From Candidatus Eiseniibacteriota bacterium (lineage in GTDB: Bacteria; Eisenbacteria; RBG-16-71-46), in contig OY970178.1 in assembly GCA_963707915.1 (NCBI GenBank), positions 288,001 through 352,000 on the forward strand: DNA of 64,000 bases, written 5' to 3'. The notes under the pieces are model-generated. The model searched no databases. It saw nothing but the letters and a program-made list of their open reading frames with translations, and had not been told where the DNA came from. How positions within the stretch are numbered: position 1 is the first letter of the stretch; each line of letters opens with the position of its first letter. Of this stretch, positions 25,972 through 64,000 are shown piece after piece. Made by a program: the position numbers and the translations under genes.

Positions 25972-28900
25972 ATGAAGAAGTCGCTCGTCCTGGTCCTTTC
26001 CTTCGTGCTGGGCCCCTTGTCCTGGGTGGCCATCGCCTCGGGCGCCGCTCCGGCCCCGACGGCGATCGAGCGTGAGTTCCACTACGGCCCGGGCCAGTTC
26101 ACGCTGACCCCGAACGCCGACGGCACGACCCAGGTGGAGATGGGCTCGGGGACGCGGGAGTACGCGGCCGGCCGGCCGGACCTGCCCCTGGTCGGCGAGC
26201 GAGTGGAGTTGCCCCTGGGGTCACGGCTCGCCGCGGTGGAGGTCCTCGAGCTCGAGACCGTCCCGCTCGCGCAAGGGGTGCGGCTGCCCAGCGCGATGGT
26301 CATTCGTCCCGGCGAGGAGACCGTCGAGCGCACGGTGCCGGACTCCGCGATCTTCGGCCAGGCCGGCTTCGTCCCGGAGCAGCTGGCGCAGGTCGGCGCA
26401 CAGGGATTCGAGCGCGGCGTGGTGGTGGCCTACGTCATGGTCGCCCCGGTGAGGTGGAACCCGGCGACGGGCGAACTGGAGCGCGTCGAGCGGATACGCG
26501 TGCGGCTGGTGCTCGAGGCCTCCGCCGGACGGCCGCTGGAGCGCGATCGGGTGGTGCCCGATTGGGAGGACGGCGCCGCGCGGACAGCCGCGCTGCGCTC
26601 GCCCGCGGTCCAGCCGGCGTCCCTGGTCGCCGGCACGCGGCGGGCGGAGCCCTTCAAGGCCACCCAGGTGCCCTCGCTGCTGGGCAGCCCGGTCGCCTAT
26701 GTCATCGTCACGAACGACGCGATGGCGCCGGCCTTCCAGCAGCTCGCGGACTGGAAGACGCGGAGCGGCGTGCCGGCCGTGGTCCGCACGCTCTCGTTCA
26801 TCAAGCAGCAGTACTCGCTCGGCGCCGACGACGCCGAGCGCGTCCGCCTCTTCCTGCGCGACGCCTACTCGCGCTGGGGCACGAAGTGGGTGCTGCTGGG
26901 GGGCGACACCGACGTGATCCCCACTCGCTTCGCCCGCACGACCTACTACGGCGGCGAGACGATCGCCACCGACCTCTATTTCTCCTGCCTGGACGGCAAT
27001 TGGAACGGCGACGGGGACAACGTCTACGGCGAGGGCATCTCCAGCGTCCCGCCCGCGCTGGGGGACTCCGCCGACCTCTTCCCCGAGGTCTTCGTGGGGC
27101 GCCTTCCGGCCAGCACGCTGGCCGAGGCGCAGGTGCTCGTGGACAAGGCCCTGAAGTACCAGCGGGAGCCCGTGGGCGACTACATGAAGAACCTCATCTC
27201 CTTCGCCGAGGTGCTCTTCCCGAACCCGTGGTCGGCGGGCATGTCGACCCAGCTCGACGGCGCCGAGCTCATCGACTACGACCTGCTTCCCATCCTGGAC
27301 ACCGTGCCCTGGATCCACTCCGCCCGGCTCTACGAGAACTACCCCGACACGCGCTGGCGGGCGGGCTCACTTCCCGAGACGCGGGCCGCCGTGATCGATT
27401 CGCTGAACCGGGGCTACAACGTCGCGCTCCACGTCGGCCACGGCTACCGCAACGTCATGAGCGTGGGGGACAACAGCCTCACCAACACCGACGCGACGGC
27501 GCTCACCAACGGGGACCGCCTGACGAACCTCTACGCCATCAATTGCAACTCGGCCTCGATCGACTACCCGTGCATCGCCGAGGCGTTCATGAAGGCCCCC
27601 CTCGGCGGCGCCGTCACCGTCGTCGGCTCCACGCGCTACGACTTCCCGACGTACGGCCGACAGTACAAGAAGGAGTACTTCCAGCTCCTGTACCAACGGG
27701 GCGTCTCCGCCGTCGGCGAGTTGCAGGCGCGCCAGAAGCTGCCGTTCGCCGGCTTTTCCGAGTACGACGGCGTGCACCGCTGGACGCAGATGGCGCTGAT
27801 CCTGCTGGGTGACCCCGAGCTCCACATCTACACCGACACCCCGCGCGTGCTCAGCGTCACGCATCCGTCCTCGATGCCGGTCAGCGACTCGGCGCTGGCC
27901 GTGAACGTGGCGGTGGGCGGCGTGCCGCTGGACAGCGCCCTCGTCACGGTGTACCGGGCGGGCCACGAGTACGCCAGCGCCCTCACCGACGTGGCCGGGA
28001 ACGTGACGCTGGCGGTGCGGCCCGATACGGTCGGCGCCCTGGCGCTGACCGTGACCGGGTACAACTGCCGGCCCTACCAGGCGTCGATCGACCTCGTGGC
28101 CGGCGGCTACCCCGCGCTCGCGGTGCGCGCGGTGCGCATCGAGGACGGCGGGACGGGGGGCACTTCCGGCAACGGGAACGGGCTCTGGGACGCGGGCGAG
28201 ACGGTCGCGCTGTACCCGATGCTGCGGAACAATGGCGGCTCGGCCGCGACCGCGCTGTCGGGCACGCTGCTGACCCCCGACGGGCTGGTCACCGTCCTGC
28301 AGCCGGCTGCCGGCTACGGCACGATCGCCGCGGGAGACAGCGCGAGCCCATCGGCGGGCCTGCTCGTCCGCCTTCCGTTCACGGCGGACGACCAGCGCGA
28401 GGTCCCCTTCGAGCTGCGCCTGGCGGACGGCTCGGGGCGCACCTACGTCGGGCGCTTCCAGCTGACGGTGCGGGCCCCGGAGTTGAGGCACATCGGGCAC
28501 GTCGTGACCGACGGCAACGCGAACGGGATCCCCGACGCGGGCGAGACGGTCAGCTACGCGGTCAAGCTGCGGAACCTGGGCAGCGGAGTCGCGCGGAGCG
28601 TGTCGGCCCGGCTGCGCAGTCTCGACGGGCTCGCCACGGTGACGGACAGCATCTCGGTATGGGGCGACATCCAGCCCGGCGAGGAGCGGACCGGTGACGG
28701 ATTCACGTTCACGCCGTCGAGCGCCGCCGCCACGCTCCAGCTCGTGGTGTCGGACGGTTACGGGGAACGCCTGCGGGAGACGATGGACATCCTGTACCCG
28801 GCCACGCCGACCGGCCTGGCGGCCTCCGGGTCGGCGGGCACCATCACGCTCACCTGGACGAAGTCCCCGGATGAGGACCTGGCCGGCTACAACGTCTACC

Positions 28901-30696
28901 GCGCCGCCGTGCCCGCCGGGCCGTTCGTCAAGATGACCCCGGTCCCCACCGGCCGGACGGCCTACTTCCTGGACGACGGGCTCGCGCAGCTCACCCGCTA
29001 CTACCACAAGGTCTCGTCGGTGGACATGTCCGGCAACGAGTCGGCGCTCACGTCGGCGGTATCCTCGAGCACGAACCCGCCGATGCATTCCATGTTCCCG
29101 TTCCCGACGCGACGCCTGTCACCGGCCCCGGTGGTGGTGGACCACATCTACGCCGGCTACCCGATGGACATCGTGGTCGGCGCCGACGTGCTGTACGTCT
29201 GGCACCCGGACGGCAAGACCCCGGTGGACGCCGACGGTTCCGGTTCCACTCCGGGCGATTTCACCACCCTGGGCAGCTACTACGCGGGCGGTCCCAGCGT
29301 CGCCGACCTCGACGGCGGCACCAAGGAGATCATCGGCGCCACCCAGGACAACAACAGCGTGTACGTGTTCGACCTCGCCGGCCAGAGCAAGCCGGGCTGG
29401 CCGGTCACGCTCCCCGACGCCATGTACGGGGCCGTGGCCGTCGCCGACCTGCAGGGCGACGGGCTGAAGGAACTGGTGGTGGCCTCGAACGGCTACAGCG
29501 TCTACGCGTTCCGCGCGAACGGCACCGAGCTGCTGGACGGCGACAACAATCCGGCGACCTTCGGCGTGTTCAAGCGGACGGGCGGCCTGTACAACTACGG
29601 TTCGCCGACGCTGGCGCCGCTCCAGAACGACGGCACGAACTCGATCGTCTTCGCCGGAAGGGACGCGCACCTCTACGCGTGGCGCTACGACGGCGCCGAC
29701 CTGCCCGGATTCCCCGTGCACCTCGGGGGCGGCGCGCTCGCCTCGACGGCGGTGGGGAGCCTGGACGGACCCGCGGGCCCGCTCAGCATCGTGGTGCCGG
29801 CACTGAACGACTCGGTCTACGTGATCCGTGCCGACGGTTCGCGCCGGCCCGGATTCCCGGTCCGCTGCCGCATGGAGTCGACCTACGGGCGGCACCCATC
29901 GCCCGCGCTGGCCGACATGAACGGCGACGGCTACCTGGAGATCGTCCAGGCCAGCACCGACGGCCTGCTGTACGTGTGGGACCGCAACGGCGTCGTCGTC
30001 CCGGGCTGGAACGGCGTCCGCTACAGCACGCTCACGACGCAGGCGTCCGAGTGCAGCCCGGTCGTGGCGGACATCAACGGCGACGGCCATCCCGACGTCG
30101 TCGTCGGGGATGCGAACGACGAACTGTCGGCGTTCTCGGGAGCCGACGCCAGCATGCTGCCCGGGTTCCCCATCCAGCTCGCCGGCGAGGTGGTCGCCAC
30201 CCCCGCGTTGTGCGACTGCGACGGCGACGGGAACACCGAGATCGTGGCCATGGGCCTGGACTTCAACGTCTACATGTGGGACTACGACTTCCCCTTCTCG
30301 CCCGGGCAGGTCCCGCCTTGGCCGCAGTACCACCACGACGCCGCGCGCACGGGCTACGCCGGGACCCCGATCCTGGCCGGAGCCGGGGACGAAGCCACGC
30401 TCCAGCCCCGCGCGCTCGAACTGGCGCCGCCGGCCCCCAATCCGGCGCGGAGCGCGATGCGCCTGTGGTACGGCATTCCCGCCGACCGGGTGGGGGAGGC
30501 GCTCGACCTGGCGATCTACGATCTCAGCGGGCGGCGCGTGCGCACCCTGCAGGGCGGGCGCGCCGAGGCCGGCCGCCACTCCGCGGCGTGGGACCTGCGC
30601 GACGAGTCGGGGTCGCCGGCCCGACCCGGCGTGTACTTCGCGCGTCTCGCGCTGGGCGCCGAGGCCCGCACGCGGAAGCTCGTCCTCGTCCGCTGA
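25972..30696 (+). CDS. Secreted gingipain-like peptidase C25 with propeptide, FnIII-like, FG-GAP repeats and C-terminal FlgD-Ig domain
   Basis: GRPDLP propeptide; YVIVT, LADWK, WVLLGGD, TDLYF, VGRLP, HVGHG (His), AINCNS (Cys), LLGDPEL; ADLDG/ADMNGDG/ADINGDG repeats; PAPNP...YDLSGRRVRTL...GVYFARL. Confidence 0.9.
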   Translation: MKKSLVLVLSFVLGPLSWVAIASGAAPAPTAIEREFHYGPGQFTLTPNADGTTQVEMGSGTREYAAGRPDLPLVGERVELPLGSRLAAVEVLELETVPLAQGVRLPSAMVIRPGEETVERTVPDSAIFGQAGFVPEQLAQVGAQGFERGVVVAYVMVAPVRWNPATGELERVERIRVRLVLEASAGRPLERDRVVPDWEDGAARTAALRSPAVQPASLVAGTRRAEPFKATQVPSLLGSPVAYVIVTNDAMAPAFQQLADWKTRSGVPAVVRTLSFIKQQYSLGADDAERVRLFLRDAYSRWGTKWVLLGGDTDVIPTRFARTTYYGGETIATDLYFSCLDGNWNGDGDNVYGEGISSVPPALGDSADLFPEVFVGRLPASTLAEAQVLVDKALKYQREPVGDYMKNLISFAEVLFPNPWSAGMSTQLDGAELIDYDLLPILDTVPWIHSARLYENYPDTRWRAGSLPETRAAVIDSLNRGYNVALHVGHGYRNVMSVGDNSLTNTDATALTNGDRLTNLYAINCNSASIDYPCIAEAFMKAPLGGAVTVVGSTRYDFPTYGRQYKKEYFQLLYQRGVSAVGELQARQKLPFAGFSEYDGVHRWTQMALILLGDPELHIYTDTPRVLSVTHPSSMPVSDSALAVNVAVGGVPLDSALVTVYRAGHEYASALTDVAGNVTLAVRPDTVGALALTVTGYNCRPYQASIDLVAGGYPALAVRAVRIEDGGTGGTSGNGNGLWDAGETVALYPMLRNNGGSAATALSGTLLTPDGLVTVLQPAAGYGTIAAGDSASPSAGLLVRLPFTADDQREVPFELRLADGSGRTYVGRFQLTVRAPELRHIGHVVTDGNANGIPDAGETVSYAVKLRNLGSGVARSVSARLRSLDGLATVTDSISVWGDIQPGEERTGDGFTFTPSSAAATLQLVVSDGYGERLRETMDILYPATPTGLAASGSAGTITLTWTKSPDEDLAGYNVYRAAVPAGPFVKMTPVPTGRTAYFLDDGLAQLTRYYHKVSSVDMSGNESALTSAVSSSTNPPMHSMFPFPTRRLSPAPVVVDHIYAGYPMDIVVGADVLYVWHPDGKTPVDADGSGSTPGDFTTLGSYYAGGPSVADLDGGTKEIIGATQDNNSVYVFDLAGQSKPGWPVTLPDAMYGAVAVADLQGDGLKELVVASNGYSVYAFRANGTELLDGDNNPATFGVFKRTGGLYNYGSPTLAPLQNDGTNSIVFAGRDAHLYAWRYDGADLPGFPVHLGGGALASTAVGSLDGPAGPLSIVVPALNDSVYVIRADGSRRPGFPVRCRMESTYGRHPSPALADMNGDGYLEIVQASTDGLLYVWDRNGVVVPGWNGVRYSTLTTQASECSPVVADINGDGHPDVVVGDANDELSAFSGADASMLPGFPIQLAGEVVATPALCDCDGDGNTEIVAMGLDFNVYMWDYDFPFSPGQVPPWPQYHHDAARTGYAGTPILAGAGDEATLQPRALELAPPAPNPARSAMRLWYGIPADRVGEALDLAIYDLSGRRVRTLQGGRAEAGRHSAAWDLRDESGSPARPGVYFARLALGAEARTRKLVLVR

Positions 30697-56972: not shown

Positions 56973-59846
56973 TCAGCCGCCCGGCCGCTTCCCCGTCGCC
57001 TCCAGCGCCGCCACGCACCGCCCGCACAGGCCGGCGCGCTCGCCCTCGGCCGCGACGTCCGCCCGGCGCATCCAGCAGCGCTCGCACTTCGCGAGCCCGG
57101 TCTGGCGCACGGCGACCTCGAGCTCGAGGCCGGCTCCGTCACCGCCCGCGGCGGCGGCCGCCGCCGGTCCTTCCGCCAGCTCGGCCCGCGCCACGATCAG
57201 GAACGCGGCCAGCTCGGCATCGTAACCGCGCAGCCGGGCGATCACCCCGGGCGCGGCGGTGAGCGTCACCTCGGCATCCGCCGGCGAGGCCAGCGTCTTC
57301 GCCGCGCGCAGCGGCTCGAGCGCGGCGTTCACCGCGTCGCGCACCGCGTGCAGGAATTCCCACTCCTCGTCGGAGGCCGCGGGCGGCTCCGGCCAGCGCG
57401 CGAGATGTACGCTCTCGCACTCGGCCAGCAGGGCGGGGTGGTGCTGCCAGACCTCCTCGGCGGTGAAGGCGAGCGCCGGGGAGGCGGCGATGGCCAGGTC
57501 GTGCAGCGCCTGCCAGAGCACGGTCTGCGCCGAGCGCCGTTTCGGATCGTCCGGCGCCAGGGTGTAGAGGCGGTCCTTCGCCACGTCGAGGAAGACCGCG
57601 GAGAGGTCCACCGTGCAGAACCCGAGCAGCAGGTCGAGCGCGCGGTGGAACTGCAGCGCCTGCCAGGCCTCGCGCACCCGCCCCAGCCGCGCGGTGAGCG
57701 CGTCGCTGAAGGCCCGGTCCACGGCGGTGAGGCGCTCGCGCGGCAGGGCCTGCGCGGGGGAGAAGTCCCCGAGGTTGCCGAGCAGGAAGCGGAAGGTGTT
57801 CCGCACCTTCCGGTAGGCGTCGGCGGCGCGCTCGAGGATCTCGTCGCTGACCCGCACGTCGGTGCGCCAGTCCGTGGCCAGTGCCCACCAGCGCACGATC
57901 TCGGCGCCGTGCTTCTTCACCACTTCGCGGGGCAGGATGACGTTGCCCAGCGACTTGTGCATGGCGCGGCCCTCGCCGTCCAGCACCCAGCCGTGGGTGC
58001 ACACGTCGGTGTAGGGCGGCAGGCCGGTGGTGCCGACGGCAACCATCAACGAGGAGTTGAACCAGCCGCGGTGCTGGTCGGGTCCCTCGAAGAACACGAT
58101 CCGATCGTCGGGTCCTTTCCGGTCTAGCCGCACCGCTTGGCTTGCACGAGTCCACGCCGCATCGAGCGCGGGGTGCGTGGCGCGTGCCGCGCGGTGGGTC
58201 GAGCCCGAGTCGAACCACACATCGAGGATGTCGGTCTCGCGGCGGAACGGGCCGGTTGCGCCGCACTTCGGGCACTTGAGGGCGGGCGGCAGGAACTCCT
58301 CGACCGGGCGCTCGTACCAGGCGTCCGAGCCGTGCGCGCGGGTCTGTTCGACCGCGCGGCGCATCACGCCCTCGTCGAGGATGGGCTCGCCGCAGGCCTC
58401 GCAGTAGACGGCGGGGATGCCCACGCCCCAGGAGCGCTGGCGCGATAGGCACCAGTCGGGCCGACCGCGCACGGACTCGCGGATGCGGTTCTGCGATGAC
58501 GGCGGGTCCCAGTTCACGAACTCAATTGCCACCAGTGACCGTTCGCGATGAGACGGATGGGGAGGCGGCCCGGTGGGGTCCCGATGGTCGATGATCATGA
58601 ACCACTGGTCGGTGGCGCGGAAGATCACCGGCTGGCGGCAGCGCCAGCAGTGCGGGTAGGAGTGGACGAACGAAGCGGCGGCGAGCAGCCGGCCGCGGTC
58701 CTTCAGCCACGCGATGATGTCGGCGTTCACGTCGAGCACGCTGCGGCCCACGAAGGGCTCCGCTCCCTCGAGGAAGCGGCCGCCTTCGTCCACCGGGCAG
58801 GCCACCTCGAGGCCCTCGCGCTGGCCGACGGCGAAGTCCTCCTTGCCGTGGCCGGGCGCGGTGTGCACCAGCCCGGTACCGTCCTCGAGGTTGACGAACG
58901 GCATCCCGTCGACGACGCGGGAATCGCGCCCCCAGGGGTTCTCGAAGATGCCGCCCACCAGGTCGCGCCCGCGCACCCGCCCGTCGACCTGCGGGTCGTC
59001 CCAGCCCACGGCCTTCGCCACCGCCTCGAGCCGGGCGGCGGCCAGCAGCCAGTGACGGTCCGCCGCACGGACCACGGCGTAGTCGGCGTCGGGGTCCACC
59101 ATGAGGCCCACGTTCGCGGGCAGGGTCCAGGGAGTGGTGGTCCATGCCACGGCCGCGATCCCGGGCCACGCGGCGAGCGCGCCGCGCGGGTCGGAGCGCA
59201 GGGGGAACGGCACGTAGATCGAGGGCGACGGATCGTCCTGGTACTCGATCTCGGCCTCGGCCAGCGCGGTCTTGTCGGTCGGGCACCAGTGGATCGAACG
59301 CAGGCCGCGCTGGATGAAGCCGCGCGCCGCGAGGCCGGCGAAGGCCTCGAGGATCGCGGCCTCGAAGTTGGTGTCCATGGTCAGGTAGGGGTGCTCCCAT
59401 TCCCCCCAGCCACCGAGGCGTTCGAACTCCTCGCGCTGCACGCCGACCCACTCTGCGGCGTACTCGCGGCAGCGGCGCCGCAGCGCGATGCGGTCGGGCT
59501 GGAGCCGTTTCTCGCGGAACTCGCTCGCCACGCGCGTCTCGATCGGCATGCCATGGTTGTCCCAGCCGGGCACGTAGGGCGAGTCCCAGCCCATGAGCGA
59601 CGCCTGGCGCACCGCGGCGTCCTTCCAGATCTTGTTGGCGGCCGTCCCCATGTGGAGGTGGCCGTTGGAGTACGGGGGGCCGTCGTGCAGCAGCCACACG
59701 GGCCGCCCGGCCCGCGCCGCGCGCAGCTTGCGGTAGAGGTCGCGTTCCTTCCACCAGGCCAGGCGCTCCGGTTCGCGCTTGAGCAGGTCGGCCTTCATCG
59801 GGAAGTCCGTCCGCGGCAGGTTCAGCGTGTCGCGATAGCCGGCCAT
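56973..59846 (-). CDS. ileS: Isoleucine--tRNA ligase (type 1)
   Basis: TLNLPRTDFPM, LHDGPPY, WTTTPWTLPAN, GTGLVHTAPGHG, DWCLSRQR, DVWFDSG, DQHRGWF, C-terminal CERCW...CGRC; GGAGG RBS. Confidence 0.97.
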   Translation of the reverse strand: MAGYRDTLNLPRTDFPMKADLLKREPERLAWWKERDLYRKLRAARAGRPVWLLHDGPPYSNGHLHMGTAANKIWKDAAVRQASLMGWDSPYVPGWDNHGMPIETRVASEFREKRLQPDRIALRRRCREYAAEWVGVQREEFERLGGWGEWEHPYLTMDTNFEAAILEAFAGLAARGFIQRGLRSIHWCPTDKTALAEAEIEYQDDPSPSIYVPFPLRSDPRGALAAWPGIAAVAWTTTPWTLPANVGLMVDPDADYAVVRAADRHWLLAAARLEAVAKAVGWDDPQVDGRVRGRDLVGGIFENPWGRDSRVVDGMPFVNLEDGTGLVHTAPGHGKEDFAVGQREGLEVACPVDEGGRFLEGAEPFVGRSVLDVNADIIAWLKDRGRLLAAASFVHSYPHCWRCRQPVIFRATDQWFMIIDHRDPTGPPPHPSHRERSLVAIEFVNWDPPSSQNRIRESVRGRPDWCLSRQRSWGVGIPAVYCEACGEPILDEGVMRRAVEQTRAHGSDAWYERPVEEFLPPALKCPKCGATGPFRRETDILDVWFDSGSTHRAARATHPALDAAWTRASQAVRLDRKGPDDRIVFFEGPDQHRGWFNSSLMVAVGTTGLPPYTDVCTHGWVLDGEGRAMHKSLGNVILPREVVKKHGAEIVRWWALATDWRTDVRVSDEILERAADAYRKVRNTFRFLLGNLGDFSPAQALPRERLTAVDRAFSDALTARLGRVREAWQALQFHRALDLLLGFCTVDLSAVFLDVAKDRLYTLAPDDPKRRSAQTVLWQALHDLAIAASPALAFTAEEVWQHHPALLAECESVHLARWPEPPAASDEEWEFLHAVRDAVNAALEPLRAAKTLASPADAEVTLTAAPGVIARLRGYDAELAAFLIVARAELAEGPAAAAAAGGDGAGLELEVAVRQTGLAKCERCWMRRADVAAEGERAGLCGRCVAALEATGKRPGG

Positions 59847-59875
59847 CGATTCCTCCAACGTGACGAACGGACTGC

Positions 59876-59910
59876 AAAAGCAAGCGCCCCGACGCCTGGG
59901 CGTCGGGGCG
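59876..59910 (-). terminator. Intrinsic terminator of the ileS T-box leader
   Basis: cgccccgacgc-ccag-gcgtcggggcg followed by cttgctttt on the minus strand. Confidence 0.85.
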
Positions 59911-60164
59911 GACGGGGCCGCGGTGCCACCCGACTTCGCGCGGGCCTCGCAGCCGGCGCCTCGGGAGCCATCGTGGATGGCTCCAGCCCACTGACGCGGG
60001 GCAGGCGGCCGAGCCTAGCGGGGGGCGCCGCTGGGATCCCGCGGTGGCGCCCGCCGTTCGGTCGGCGGCTCGGGGGTGATCTTCGACGCGCGCGTGGGTG
60101 CCGGGCTCACACCGTCCCCGACTCGCTGGTACGCGCCGCGCGCCTACTCGTCCCCGTCATGGCC
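59876..60164 (-). ncRNA. T-box riboswitch leader, Ile (AUC) specifier
   Basis: Minus strand: GCCATGACGGGGACGAGTAG stem I start, CAGCGAG bulge, GGTGTGAG apical loop, specifier loop GAAG-ATC-A (60080-60078), T-box AAGTCGGGTGGCACCGCG (~59936-59919), overlapping terminator. Confidence 0.9.
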
Positions 60165-60243
60165 TCTGACGTCGGGACGTTGACATGGCCGCCGCCCGGG
60201 GTCAAGCGCGGGGCGCCGGCGCGCGGGACCGGCGCCCGCGCGT

Positions 60244-61425
60244 TCAGCGCGGCCGTTCCCCGGGCGCGGAAGCCGGTGGCGGAACGCTCGCCGAGAGGTC
60301 GGCCAGCAGCAGGCAGGCGTCCGCCAGCGTGGGCGGATCCTTGCTGTACAGGCCGTCGAGATCCTTCGCGGGGTTCTCGAGGCCGAACCGCTGCCGGCAG
60401 GCCCGGCGATGGAGCGCCGCCTCGAGCGGGGCGGGGGGCAGGTTGGCGCCGAACGCGGCCAGCGCCACGAGGTCGCGGCGCAGGTCGCGCCAGGTGGCGG
60501 GCCGACGCAGCGCGGCGTGCTCGCGCATGGGTAGCAGGCCCGCGTCCACCAGCGTCTCGCGCAGCGAGCCGGCGTCGGCGGGGAGGTCCGGCAGCGGAAG
60601 CCGCGCCGCGCGTGCCAGGAGGAGTTGCCAGGTCGCGCGCTCCAGCGGCTCGTCCCCCCGGGACTCGCGCCCGATCAGGCCGGCGCGTTCGGCCCACTCG
60701 AGGTAGGGCCCGGTCGTGCCGGTGTCGGCGCGATGGGCCGGCAGCCGCTGCTCCAGGAAGGGCAGCGGGTCCATGGCAGCCTCGTTCTCCCAGCGCGCGG
60801 CGGGGTCACGGGTCTGGCGCACCTCGAAATGCAGGTGGTCGGTGGTGGCGCGCCCGCTGTGGCCGACCTCGCCCAGCGGTTCGCCGGCCCACACGGCCTG
60901 GCTCTGCCGGACGCGGGTCGAGCTGTTGCGCAGGTGCGCATACACGCTGTAGGCGATGTCGCCGTCGGGGGTGCGGTGGGCCAGCACGACGTGGCAGCCG
61001 AAGCCGCTGCCGTCCGGGCGATCGTGGACGACCACCACGAGACCGTTGGCCGCGGCGCGCACGACGTCGCCCCCGCGGCCGTTGGCCAGGTCGGCGCCGA
61101 AGTGGACGTCGCCGGTGATCGCGAAGCCGCGCAACAGTTGCCACGCCGGCTCGCCGGCGGGAGAGGGCTGGGTGAAGTCGCTGGCGGCCCCGAGCGGCCA
61201 CGTCCACGCGCCGGCCCACGGCCAGCGCGAGATCGTGCCGTCATCGAGCGGAAGCAACCCGCCGAGCAGCACCGGGGGCTCCTGGGAGGATGGGTCGGGC
61301 AGGGCACGCTCCCTGGCGGCCGGCCCCGCGTGGGCCGCCAGCGCCACCAGCGCCGCCAGCGCCGCGAGCCCCAGGAGGGTCGCACCGGCGCGGCGGTGGA
61401 GGCGGGACGACCGGGGGGGCTTCAG
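60244..61425 (-). CDS. M23 family metallopeptidase, secreted (start uncertain)
   Basis: HFGAD (HxxxD), VRAAANG.V, SVYAHL, GEVGHSG, HLHFEVR; hydrophobic signal. No in-frame ATG: CTG 61425 overlaps the upstream stop, or GTG 61347. Confidence 0.85.
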   Translation of the reverse strand: MKPPRSSRLHRRAGATLLGLAALAALVALAAHAGPAARERALPDPSSQEPPVLLGGLLPLDDGTISRWPWAGAWTWPLGAASDFTQPSPAGEPAWQLLRGFAITGDVHFGADLANGRGGDVVRAAANGLVVVVHDRPDGSGFGCHVVLAHRTPDGDIAYSVYAHLRNSSTRVRQSQAVWAGEPLGEVGHSGRATTDHLHFEVRQTRDPAARWENEAAMDPLPFLEQRLPAHRADTGTTGPYLEWAERAGLIGRESRGDEPLERATWQLLLARAARLPLPDLPADAGSLRETLVDAGLLPMREHAALRRPATWRDLRRDLVALAAFGANLPPAPLEAALHRRACRQRFGLENPAKDLDGLYSKDPPTLADACLLLADLSASVPPPASAPGERPR

Positions 61426-64000
61426 CGGAGGACCACGAGGCGTTGCGCCGGGCCATGGGCCCCGCGGGGGAGCACGAAGTACACGCCGGCCACCCAGGGC
61501 CGCGTCTGGCCGCTCGCCAGGCGACCCCGCGACTCCGGGCCCCGGGGCAGCAGTTCCACCACGGCCACCCGCCGCCCGGCCAGGTCGTAGATTTCGAGCG
61601 CTTCCGCGGCCGTCCCCCCGGGTGCAGCTGCCCAGCGGAACTCGACCTCCCGGCCCGCGAGCGCCGGATTGGGCCGGATCGAGATCGGCGACGGCACGGC
61701 GAGCGCGGCGGTGAGCGGGACGGCGAGCGGCGGGCGCCAGTCGGTGAGCCGGCGGCGTTCCATGAAGTGGGCCGTTCCCCCCTGATAGCTCCGGAAGAGC
61801 ACGGTCACGTTCCCCGGCGAGGAGGCGAGCACGGCGGGTTGCACGGCCGCTTCCGCCGTGGCCTGGGTGATGTCCGTGCTGTTGGCGTCCCAGCCGAGCC
61901 TGGGATGCCGGCGGCGGTAGCGAATGTGCGTGACTCCGCTCACCGAGCGCTCGAACACCACGTGCAGGCCGCCTTCGGCGTCGCGCGCGAGCCGCGCCCC
62001 GGCGAGCGTGCTGTTGCTGGTTTCGATCACGGTGTCCGCGGGCGCGAATCCCCCCAGGGCCAGGCGCCGCTGGTAGTGCAGCTCGCTCCCGGTCGCGCCG
62101 CTCTCGATCCACAGGCTGTGCAGCGTGCCACTCGACTCGGCCAGCGCCGAGACCCACGTCTGGGACAGCCCGTTCTGGGGAGTCAGCCGCAGGCCCGTTC
62201 CGGGGAGGGAGTCGAGACCGCAGCGCGAGAACCACAGGGTGGTCGGCCAGTTCGCATTGTTCGCCCAGATCACGACGGCGCCCCCCGATGGCAGGACCGT
62301 GACCAGCGGGTTCGCGGCCGACTCGCTGACGCCCGACAACGTGAACGACTGCCCGAAGGGTGACAGGTAGGGGAACCTCAGGTACTGGATGTTCGGCAGG
62401 TCCTGCCCGATCAGGACCCAGGCGACGTGGACGCCGCCCTTGCGATCGGCCCCGACGGAGGGGGCCCGGTGCTCGCCCGAAAGGGTGCTGAGGACCTGCT
62501 CCGACGTCCACACGCCACCGACCCGGGCGCGGTAGAAGATGCGGATCGGCCCGAGTCGCGTGTCGCACCACACGAGCGCGAGGTCGTCGGTGCCGAGCAC
62601 GGCCAGGGCGGGCTCGAAGGCGTCGCCCGAGGACTGCGAGACGACGACGCCCTCGCCCCACTCGCCTGCGCGCCGCGAGCGCAGGACGATCTGGAGATGG
62701 CCGAGGCGCGTCTCGCTCGCGACCGAGTAACCGGTCCCGCTGGGCGCCAGCGCCGCCCTGGCTGCGGTGGTCGGCGTCTCGGACGGGGTGTACTCGCCGA
62801 CCGTGCGGTCGGCGGCCGGCTCCCAGCCGGTCGCGCGGACCTGCGCGAGGAAGCTCATCCCGTCCGCCATCGGGGCGATGTCGTAGAGGCCCACGCCCGT
62901 CGGGGCGCCCAGGAAGGTGAGGGTGTTGGGTGGCGGCGTGTCGTCGAACAGCGCGGCCCGGCCGCTCGCGCCCGGGTAGACGTCGCCCGCATCACCGCGG
63001 TTGACGCCACTGGTGAGATCGGTGGTCCCGGCCGCCTCTTCGACGACGAGTCCCGGGACCGCTCCCGAGTTGACCGAGTTGGATTGGATGCCCTGGCCGA
63101 TCACCGCGTCGTTGACGTGGTAGACGACGAGTCCGCCCGCGGGCAGATTGCGGTCGAAGCCCGCCTGCCGGCGGGCCTCGACCAGGAAGTGCTCCGGGTT
63201 GGCCTCGCCCTGGAAGGAGAGTTGCAGGACCTGGTTCCCGATGCCGAGCGGGGGCAGCACGACCGGCGTGTCCTCCGTGGGCGCGAGCACCTGCGTCCAG
63301 CCCAGGAAGAGCGTGGGCCAGGCCCCGAGGTGGGCCGGGTACTCGGGCGAGTGGCCGTCGCCTCCATAGGCGCCGGTCCCCATCAGCGACCAGTTGCCGG
63401 GGCCCGAATTGGTCGTCCCGCCGTCCCGGGTGTCGTAGAGGTCCGGCAGGCCCAGGGCGTGGCCGAACTCGTGGCAGTAGACGCCGATCTCCGAGCGCTG
63501 TCCGGGGGCGAAGTAGGAGAGCTCCGGCAGGATGGTGAAACGGTCGATTCGCATGTGCTGGGTGAGTGAGCCCGGGACGTGCTCGGGGGTCTGGTAGGCG
63601 CCGGTGCCGCTCCAGAAGGTGGAGAGCCGGGAGGTGATGGACCACAGGTCGTTGTTGAAACGGTCCGGGGCGGCCTCCCCGGGGAGGCCGGCGTGGACCA
63701 CCCAGAGCATGTCCACGAAGCCGTCCCGGTCGAGGTCGAAGTCGGACCACTGGACTTGCGCGGCGCAGGCGTTCAGGGCGTCGATGACCAGCCCGGCGGA
63801 GTTGTGCGGGGTGGACGTGCGGGACAGTCCAAAGCTGTTGTAACCGTAGTAGAGCTTGTCGTGCGGCAACGCCACCGTCGCCACCACCCGCCCGACCACG
63901 CTGATGCGATTGCTCGAGACCCAGTCGTAGTAGTCGTGGACCGACCCCGTGGGAGTGGCCTGGGTCGTGTCGAAGAGGGCGAGGTCGAAGTCGGCGCCGG
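61422..64000 (-). CDS. M6 (immune inhibitor A) metalloprotease with repeat domain and C-terminal FlgD-Ig/T9SS-like domain (5'-partial)
   Basis: GSVHDYY, FDLDRDGFVD...VHAG, IGVYCHEFGHALGLPDLYD, WSLMGTG, EHFLVE.R...FD; ends IRPNP...IYDLAGRRV...AGVYFV. Confidence 0.9.
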   Translation of the reverse strand, partial: GADFDLALFDTTQATPTGSVHDYYDWVSSNRISVVGRVVATVALPHDKLYYGYNSFGLSRTSTPHNSAGLVIDALNACAAQVQWSDFDLDRDGFVDMLWVVHAGLPGEAAPDRFNNDLWSITSRLSTFWSGTGAYQTPEHVPGSLTQHMRIDRFTILPELSYFAPGQRSEIGVYCHEFGHALGLPDLYDTRDGGTTNSGPGNWSLMGTGAYGGDGHSPEYPAHLGAWPTLFLGWTQVLAPTEDTPVVLPPLGIGNQVLQLSFQGEANPEHFLVEARRQAGFDRNLPAGGLVVYHVNDAVIGQGIQSNSVNSGAVPGLVVEEAAGTTDLTSGVNRGDAGDVYPGASGRAALFDDTPPPNTLTFLGAPTGVGLYDIAPMADGMSFLAQVRATGWEPAADRTVGEYTPSETPTTAARAALAPSGTGYSVASETRLGHLQIVLRSRRAGEWGEGVVVSQSSGDAFEPALAVLGTDDLALVWCDTRLGPIRIFYRARVGGVWTSEQVLSTLSGEHRAPSVGADRKGGVHVAWVLIGQDLPNIQYLRFPYLSPFGQSFTLSGVSESAANPLVTVLPSGGAVVIWANNANWPTTLWFSRCGLDSLPGTGLRLTPQNGLSQTWVSALAESSGTLHSLWIESGATGSELHYQRRLALGGFAPADTVIETSNSTLAGARLARDAEGGLHVVFERSVSGVTHIRYRRRHPRLGWDANSTDITQATAEAAVQPAVLASSPGNVTVLFRSYQGGTAHFMERRRLTDWRPPLAVPLTAALAVPSPISIRPNPALAGREVEFRWAAAPGGTAAEALEIYDLAGRRVAVVELLPRGPESRGRLASGQTRPWVAGVYFVLPRGAHGPAQRLVVLR

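Follow-up and report, generated by a model that had tools for sequence, protein, structure and literature searches.

A predicted transcription-attenuating isoleucine T-box accompanies a type-1 ileS in the diderm candidate phylum Eisenbacteria

Class I T-boxes are transcription attenuators that are opened by uncharged tRNA, as set out in PMC7583486. By 2008, T-boxes had already been reported from Deinococcus (ile and gly), Geobacter, Pelobacter and Chloroflexi, and the same survey records none in 7 Bacteroidetes/Chlorobi genomes (PMC2494555). The TBDB preprint names Actinobacteria, Chloroflexi and Deinococcus-Thermus as hosts and invokes transfer for other phyla. A preliminary description of the window (the whole 64,000-nt stretch of Candidatus Eisenbacteria DNA analysed here) placed a complete Ile T-box at 59876..60164, upstream of ileS, and saw in it an extension of the known range. 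Our analysis upholds the element and not an extension in kind: besides the Deinococcus, Geobacter and Pelobacter T-boxes listed in PMC2494555, we found full-length T-boxes in Armatimonadota and, closely resembling this one, Ile T-boxes on contigs with a Trueperaceae-like isoleucyl-tRNA synthetase. Judging from sequence, it is probable that this ileS is preceded by a complete class I T-box that likely attenuates transcription, that uncharged tRNA-Ile(GAU) would permit read-through, and that leader and type-1 ileS were gained together.

The leader lies on the minus strand (60163-59875), with all elements present and in order: a promoter-like site, Stem I, Stem II, Stem IIA/B, an extra hairpin, Stem III, antiterminator, terminator, U tract and Shine-Dalgarno (SD) sequence (Table 1). 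The promoter pattern, which was fixed after viewing the leaders concerned, recurs in 20/31 related ileS leaders, where shuffles predict 0.04; a generic scan did not call the site, and the preliminary description does not mention it. The genome has a single tRNA-Ile(GAU) gene, which matches the AUC specifier, and the downstream gene is ileS by TIGR00392, so specifier and synthetase agree as first described. Its product is a type-1 isoleucyl-tRNA synthetase (IleRS) of 957 aa with a C-terminal Cys4 motif and AMHKS replacing KMSKS. The same replacement is common to many of the sampled type-1 IleRS (IleRS1) sequences from WOR-3, TA06, Armatimonadota and Gemmatimonadota-labelled records. ileS is the last gene of its unit and converges on a deoxynucleoside kinase gene; upstream of the promoter, M23 and M6 peptidase genes occupy 60244-64000 (minus strand).

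Table 1. Features of the ileS locus (window coordinates)
Feature	Position	Strand	Details
Predicted sigma-70-type promoter	60177..60205	-	-35 TTGACC 60205-60200, 17-nt spacer, -10 CAACGT 60182-60177
Long Stem I with K-turn (GA motif) and AGUA/GAA loop E	60068..60163	-	RF00230 positions 7-103, 36.8 bits, E 1.2e-6
Stem I AGCGA bulge	60127-60123	-	
Stem I apical GGUGUGA loop	60113-60107	-	
Specifier codon AUC (Ile), then A	60080-60078	-	AUC in 35/36 aligned leaders
Stem II	60009..60065	-	Compensatory changes in helices 6-7 across relatives
Stem IIA/B, predicted pseudoknot	59986..60008	-	89.8% pairing in the pseudoknot helix, where one pair covaries, and 88.9% in helix IIA
Extra hairpin between Stem IIA/B and Stem III	59964..59984	-	Two-sided changes in 4/4 counted pairs across relatives
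Stem III, 5' GAG purines and 3' AA	59935..59962	-	AG 36/36; AA 35 and 36 of 36; covarying stem
Antiterminator	59902..59934	-	6-bp helix A1, 7-nt bulge UGGCACC 59928-59922, helix A2
Intrinsic terminator	59875..59910	-	11-bp hairpin 59910-59885 and imperfect U tract
Shine-Dalgarno GGAGGA	59851..59856	-	Sequence; 29 nt past terminator hairpin
ileS	56973..59846	-	TIGR00392 764.9 bits, cut-off 621.4; ATG at 59846

The host genome (3.62 Mb, 72% GC) encodes BamA and LpxC, both above their cut-offs, and is therefore diderm. This agrees with the Gram-negative host that had been deduced from exosortase, polysaccharide export and FlgD-tailed proteins, all of which are indeed encoded in the window. Nor is the host a Firmicute: in trees its IleRS falls inside a clade with support of 100, in which the relatives of the host genome sit together with records named Ca. 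Eisenbacteria. That is also the title of most of the nearest IleRS records (64-79% in the best segment). Eisenbacteria are placed near the FCB group. A C25 peptidase with FG-GAP repeats and a FlgD tail is encoded at 25972-30696 (plus strand), and the genome has a tRNA-Sec gene (G000:C1:535918-536015).

Standard annotation passes over this leader. At its gathering score of 93 bits the T-box model RF00230 has no match in the window, where Rfam gives only two tRNAs. In E-value mode it matched in two pieces, namely Stem I (Table 1) and the antiterminator (59936-59904, 16.7 bits, E 0.17). Thus the covariance-model check suggested at the outset gave a significant Stem I match, with neither piece reaching the gathering score. 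That score is an annotation threshold and not a structural feature, and only 2/5 control genomes with matches exceed it. The best relative reached 73.8 bits over its full length, and 44 of the 151 genomes examined from the phylum had RF00230 matches, with 0/151 above the cut-off; the finding adds a T-box host clade that threshold-based annotation misses. In the 3.62-Mb genome, the only site with the strict antiterminator geometry is the ileS leader. The glnS-like and gltX-like genes named in the preliminary description are in the window (two tRNA-synt_1c), and neither RF00230 nor a lineage-specific Stem I model found a second T-box in the genome, as that description would lead one to expect. 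Another bulge-like motif elsewhere in the genome was dismissed as a T-box, there being no Stem I there.

Folding set only the terminator apart from chance. Its stem had a z-score of -4.96, with 0/200 shuffles equally stable, and a terminator scan returned 1 terminator-like site versus 0.1 expected. Stem I, Stem II and the leader taken as one piece folded no better than shuffles at this high GC (z -0.07, -0.69 and -0.53), so the evidence for them is motif order and covariation, not stability. We therefore relied on an alignment of 36 distinct full-length leaders, each either taken from upstream of ileS or verified to lie there: 34 were chosen by motif, with motif-less leaders excluded, and two (L007 and L009) came from ileS loci. 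Run without constraint, RNAalifold returned the antiterminator, 7-nt bulge included. In a hand-set 59-pair structure, 89.6% of cells paired and 32/59 pairs showed two-sided changes; 0/500 shuffles reached the observed values and slid structures were 37-44% paired, in controls that leave relatedness uncontrolled. Antiterminator helices were 99.1% (A1) and 100% (A2) paired, with UA/CG covariation, and the competing terminator helix also covaried across relatives, with 2/5 measures failing to beat shuffles. Covariation in the 36 relatives, together with the order of the elements, confirms the complete T-box first proposed.

The 5′ arm of the terminator is the 3′ arm of the antiterminator, so the two folds are mutually exclusive. 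The overlap that had been described holds; the U tail is imperfect and interrupted (6 U in 9 nt). Of the two folds, the terminator is more stable by 13 kcal/mol, and the SD sequence is about equally accessible in both (unpaired probability 0.31 versus 0.33), as would suit a transcription attenuator that is off by default and opens with uncharged tRNA-Ile. By analogy with class I T-boxes, transcription would start near 60170, the tRNA-Ile anticodon would pair with AUC, and the tRNA elbow would stack on the distal Stem I platform. If uncharged, the tRNA would pair its CCA end with the UGG of the bulge (three pairs and a C.A mismatch at A73), stabilising the antiterminator and allowing polymerase to proceed into ileS. 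A charged tRNA, as when isoleucine is plentiful, would be unable to dock, in which case the more stable hairpin would form and transcription would stop near 59876. We infer tRNA binding and read-through by this leader from that analogy.

Most actinobacterial ileS T-boxes control translation initiation, and the closest-looking RNAs to ours include actinomycete ileS leaders; in addition, the U tract is poor in some relatives, L007, L012, L111 and L126 among them, with 3-4 U in 9 nt. Yet it is extremely unlikely that the switch works in this way here, because the hairpin stops short of the SD, whose accessibility does not change between the folds, most relatives keep the U-rich tail, and Stem I is long. 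Indeed, the sequestrator helix over the SD that marks class II (translational) T-boxes was not found. The long Stem I, the terminator and the equal SD accessibility are those of a predicted full-length, transcription-type T-box, as the preliminary description had it.

To place the leader within its phylum, we sampled 150 genomes besides that of the window: 59 from family f1, 6 from f3 and 85 from others. RF00230 matches occurred in 40/59, 3/6 and 0/85, respectively, with none above the gathering score. The Stem I model, partly built from these genomes, found 43/59, 3/6 and 0/85, placing a T-box in 46/65 genomes of two sister families. Type-1 IleRS followed the same boundary (54/59 in f1 and 5/6 in f3, together 59/65, and 0/85 in others), and type-2-like IleRS had the opposite distribution, with 1/65 in f1 and f3 versus 73/85 elsewhere. 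In an RpoB tree (28 rows), f1 and f3 formed one clade (SH-aLRT 100) nested in the phylum among type-2 families, although this is a single marker with weak deeper nodes (80-96) and long outgroup branches. Given this clade and the co-distribution of T-box and IleRS1, a single joint gain is the simplest reading. By parsimony over incomplete genomes and a single-marker tree, leader and type-1 ileS most likely entered once, on the stem of the two sister families, and displaced the type-2 ileS. An IleRS phylogeny had been suggested at the outset as a check for transfer; recent ileS transfer from the sampled Bacillota was rejected (AU p 0.011, with 7 rows treated as Bacillota in a quick LG+G4 tree).

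The bulge of the antiterminator reads UGGC, and the tRNA-Ile(GAU) of this genome has A73, so the C.A mismatch with the discriminator that had been suspected is real. All four bases occur at this bulge position among 46 distinct related antiterminators (31 U, 11 C, 2 A and 2 G). A mismatch with A73 is present in 15/46, against 0/55 comparison leaders. A73 was present in 19/19 complete tRNA-Ile genes from 81 genomes searched, none of these genes coming from f3, the home of two A-bulge cases. On a 34-row IleRS tree with 28 scored rows, we counted at least 7 changes between U and non-U. UGGU was kept in 37/37 leaders linked to type-2 IleRS (IleRS2) on GC-rich contigs and in 18/18 named non-Eisenbacteria ileS leaders, sets that are internally related and unevenly sampled. 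High GC was ruled out as the cause of UGGC, since the IleRS2-linked leaders keep UGGU at 61-75% GC. By the account of TBDB, the variable bulge base is paired to the tRNA discriminator in 'a majority of the cases'. In the Eisenbacterial lineage this fourth bulge-tRNA pair appears to be dispensable.

A UGGC bulge might instead serve a second tRNA with G73, read through a shifted specifier frame (GAU for Asp or UCA for Ser) in a switch of dual specificity. The tRNA-Asp and tRNA-Ser genes here do end in G-CCA, and TBDB considers shifted specifier frames. We regard this as very unlikely, however: AUC sits at the canonical position in 35/36 leaders, the base preceding it is not fixed (G 30, C 6), the gene that follows is ileS, and a bulge base that takes all four values fits tolerance and not a second partner.

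Helix A2 is also unusual at its base, where a G59921-C59908 pair replaces the usual G.U; G-C closure was found in 46/46 distinct related antiterminators. A G-C pair at this position is described as a steric filter and as a less common functional variant (PMC11404447, citing Li et al. 2019). As a novel feature it was rejected, being published for streptococcal glyQS T-boxes and found in 4/37 and 1/18 comparison leaders. We found no support for G-C closure as compensation for the mismatch, as four comparison leaders with G-C keep UGGU.

Three features weaken the window's copy: the C.A mismatch, the interrupted U tract and a degenerate 3′ S-turn strand in Stem II, which reads GCUAG here and AGUAG in most relatives, with C where 31/36 have G. 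Several relatives have lost parts of the leader or all of it. In the same-genus relative L083 an internal deletion removes the specifier; in L019, L095 and L246 the leader is reduced to a stub and terminator; and in L091, L101 and L245 it is absent with the promoter kept, the -10 box of L245 ending about 12 nt before the ATG (the leader survey covered loci other than L244 and L247). These losses, together with the mismatch, the S-turn strand and the repeated switching of the bulge base between matching and non-matching states, would suit a decaying relic that folds with weak or no tRNA response, ileS being expressed by leaky read-through of the imperfect terminator. Such a relic is unlikely all the same. 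The AG bulge and GGUG of Stem I, the UGG and the Stem III purines are invariant in 36/36 aligned leaders and all kept in the window's copy (Stem III AGGCG...AA), despite linked IleRS sequences that are only 53-85% identical to the window's. Taken together, the G-C closure, the variable bulge base, the degenerate S-turn strand and the lost or truncated leaders of relatives point to selection that is relaxed but not absent.

Other leaders vary in their own ways. In L242 (G060), Stem I is a small hairpin above the AUC loop, without the AG bulge or apical loop, and the bulge is UGGUCAC; the U-tailed terminator is kept. The distal Stem I platform is described as generally required for transcriptional T-boxes (PMC7583486). 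The short Stem I of L242, seen in one genome, may represent decay. A subgroup (L007, L009, L012, L014 and L138) has UGGNAAC bulges and a long extra helix within the terminator (a 58-60 nt hairpin), with poor U tracts in several members. L007 and L312 carry an insertion at the base of Stem I. L100 (G010) has AAC at the specifier position and a disrupted Stem I base, with the antiterminator intact. Two ileS copies, each with a T-box, occur in one assembly with 3% contamination reported (L126 and L221, G103).

The gene and the RNA may have separate origins. In the IleRS tree, from a biased sample drawn from patterns of the query, the sister was Gemmatimonadota-labelled IleRS (support 97-99), within a group that includes Armatimonadota, WOR-3 and TA06. 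A search of 121 genomes from G186's phylum, to which the IleRS sister lineage belongs, yielded no T-box, and neither did the named genomes of TA06 (2), WOR-3 (5) and Gemmatimonadota (3); one Armatimonadota ileS (L026) has an antiterminator directly upstream. Among named loci, clostridial ileS leaders scored best with the Stem I model (57-64 bits). When metagenomes were scanned with a 27-nt motif of the distal Stem I, the 120 stretches obtained (80 of them with flanks) were mostly Ile T-boxes that precede a type-2 IleRS. The contigs scoring best from Stem II to the terminator are similar to the Actinomycetota-like L322, and four contigs (L305, L308, L331 and L352) have the Eisenbacterial antiterminator type with G-C closure, the IleRS of L331 being Deinococcales/Trueperaceae-like. 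On this sequence evidence, separate sources for RNA and gene are possible.

Several records in these samples stood out. The titles of L016 (Limnocylindria) and L020 (Saccharimonadaceae) disagree with their IleRS placement in the Eisenbacteria clade, and L052, titled Methylocystaceae, has a Syntrophomonadaceae-like IleRS in a genome with 10 T-box matches; all three are probably mislabelled. A recurring T-box with an AAC-like specifier region precedes a gene starting MCAIMGF, presumably asparagine synthetase B (L299, L306, L315, L328, L334, L338, L348 and L353).

A bolder reading, which we hold tentatively and think rather less likely than its negation, is that this is a lineage of discriminator-blind T-boxes that sense the CCA end alone and leave base 73 unread, having entered the phylum a single time along with a type-1 ileS in place of type 2, and that the RNA may have been grafted from an ileS2 leader of Deinococcota or Actinomycetota type onto a gene of other ancestry. 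If so, the clade would be a natural variant series, comprising four different bulge bases, a shortened Stem I that keeps its terminator, and successive deletions, and informing what a T-box minimally needs and how it is gained and lost. In any case, with a bulge base that varies freely, natural variants are at hand for testing how much the discriminator pair contributes. The attenuator proposed here also links a riboswitch with the replacement of a synthetase, sharply delimited inside one phylum, a usable case for T-box spread outside the Firmicutes. What appears to be new is the host clade, Ca. Eisenbacteria; the mechanism is standard, diderm hosts were already known, and the finding changes neither. 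Armatimonadota, a diderm phylum, had RF00230 matches in 9/20 named genomes, 6 above the gathering score, including full-length T-boxes. We found no paper connecting Eisenbacteria with a T-box or riboswitch in a search outside which most subscription journals lie, and the TBDB phylum listing might include the phylum.

Compared with the class I T-boxes of RF00230 (the B. subtilis tyrS type as described in PMC7583486), the Eisenbacterial leader has the long Stem I with K-turn, loop E, AG bulge and apical loop, a matching specifier that ends in C, Stem II, Stem IIA/B, Stem III with purine flanks, a 7-nt UGGNACC bulge flanked by helices A1 and A2, a mutually exclusive, overlapping terminator and an aminoacyl-tRNA synthetase target. 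The optional Stem II S-turn and IIA/B pseudoknot are present and covary in the lineage, the S-turn strand being degenerate in the window's copy. Unlike those T-boxes, the window's leader scores under the gathering threshold, A2 closes with G-C throughout in place of the usual wobble, and the bulge is often non-complementary to A73, a pairing that is usual and not universal. Eisenbacterial leaders also have one extra hairpin, and each genome has just one T-box, apart from one genome with two, each ahead of an ileS copy.

The full-length ileS T-boxes of GC-rich, Trueperaceae-like Deinococcota and uncultured Actinomycetota on metagenome contigs share the 27-nt distal Stem I motif, which was the scan pattern, and actinomycete-type leaders (L322) have the same layout of Stem II, IIA/B, extra hairpin and Stem III; this affinity may be inflated by high GC and the search pattern. 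In contrast to the Eisenbacterial leaders, these precede type-2 IleRS and keep UGGU throughout. Streptococcal glyQS T-boxes likewise have G-C in place of G.U at the base of A2, but with a glycine specifier, Firmicutes hosts and a different middle domain in the published descriptions. Finally, the ileS T-boxes that act on translation in Nocardia farcinica and Mycobacterium tuberculosis share the AUC specifier, ileS target, Stem II and pseudoknot; there Stem I is short and the SD is sequestered (PMC7583486), whereas the Eisenbacterial leader combines a long Stem I with a terminator.
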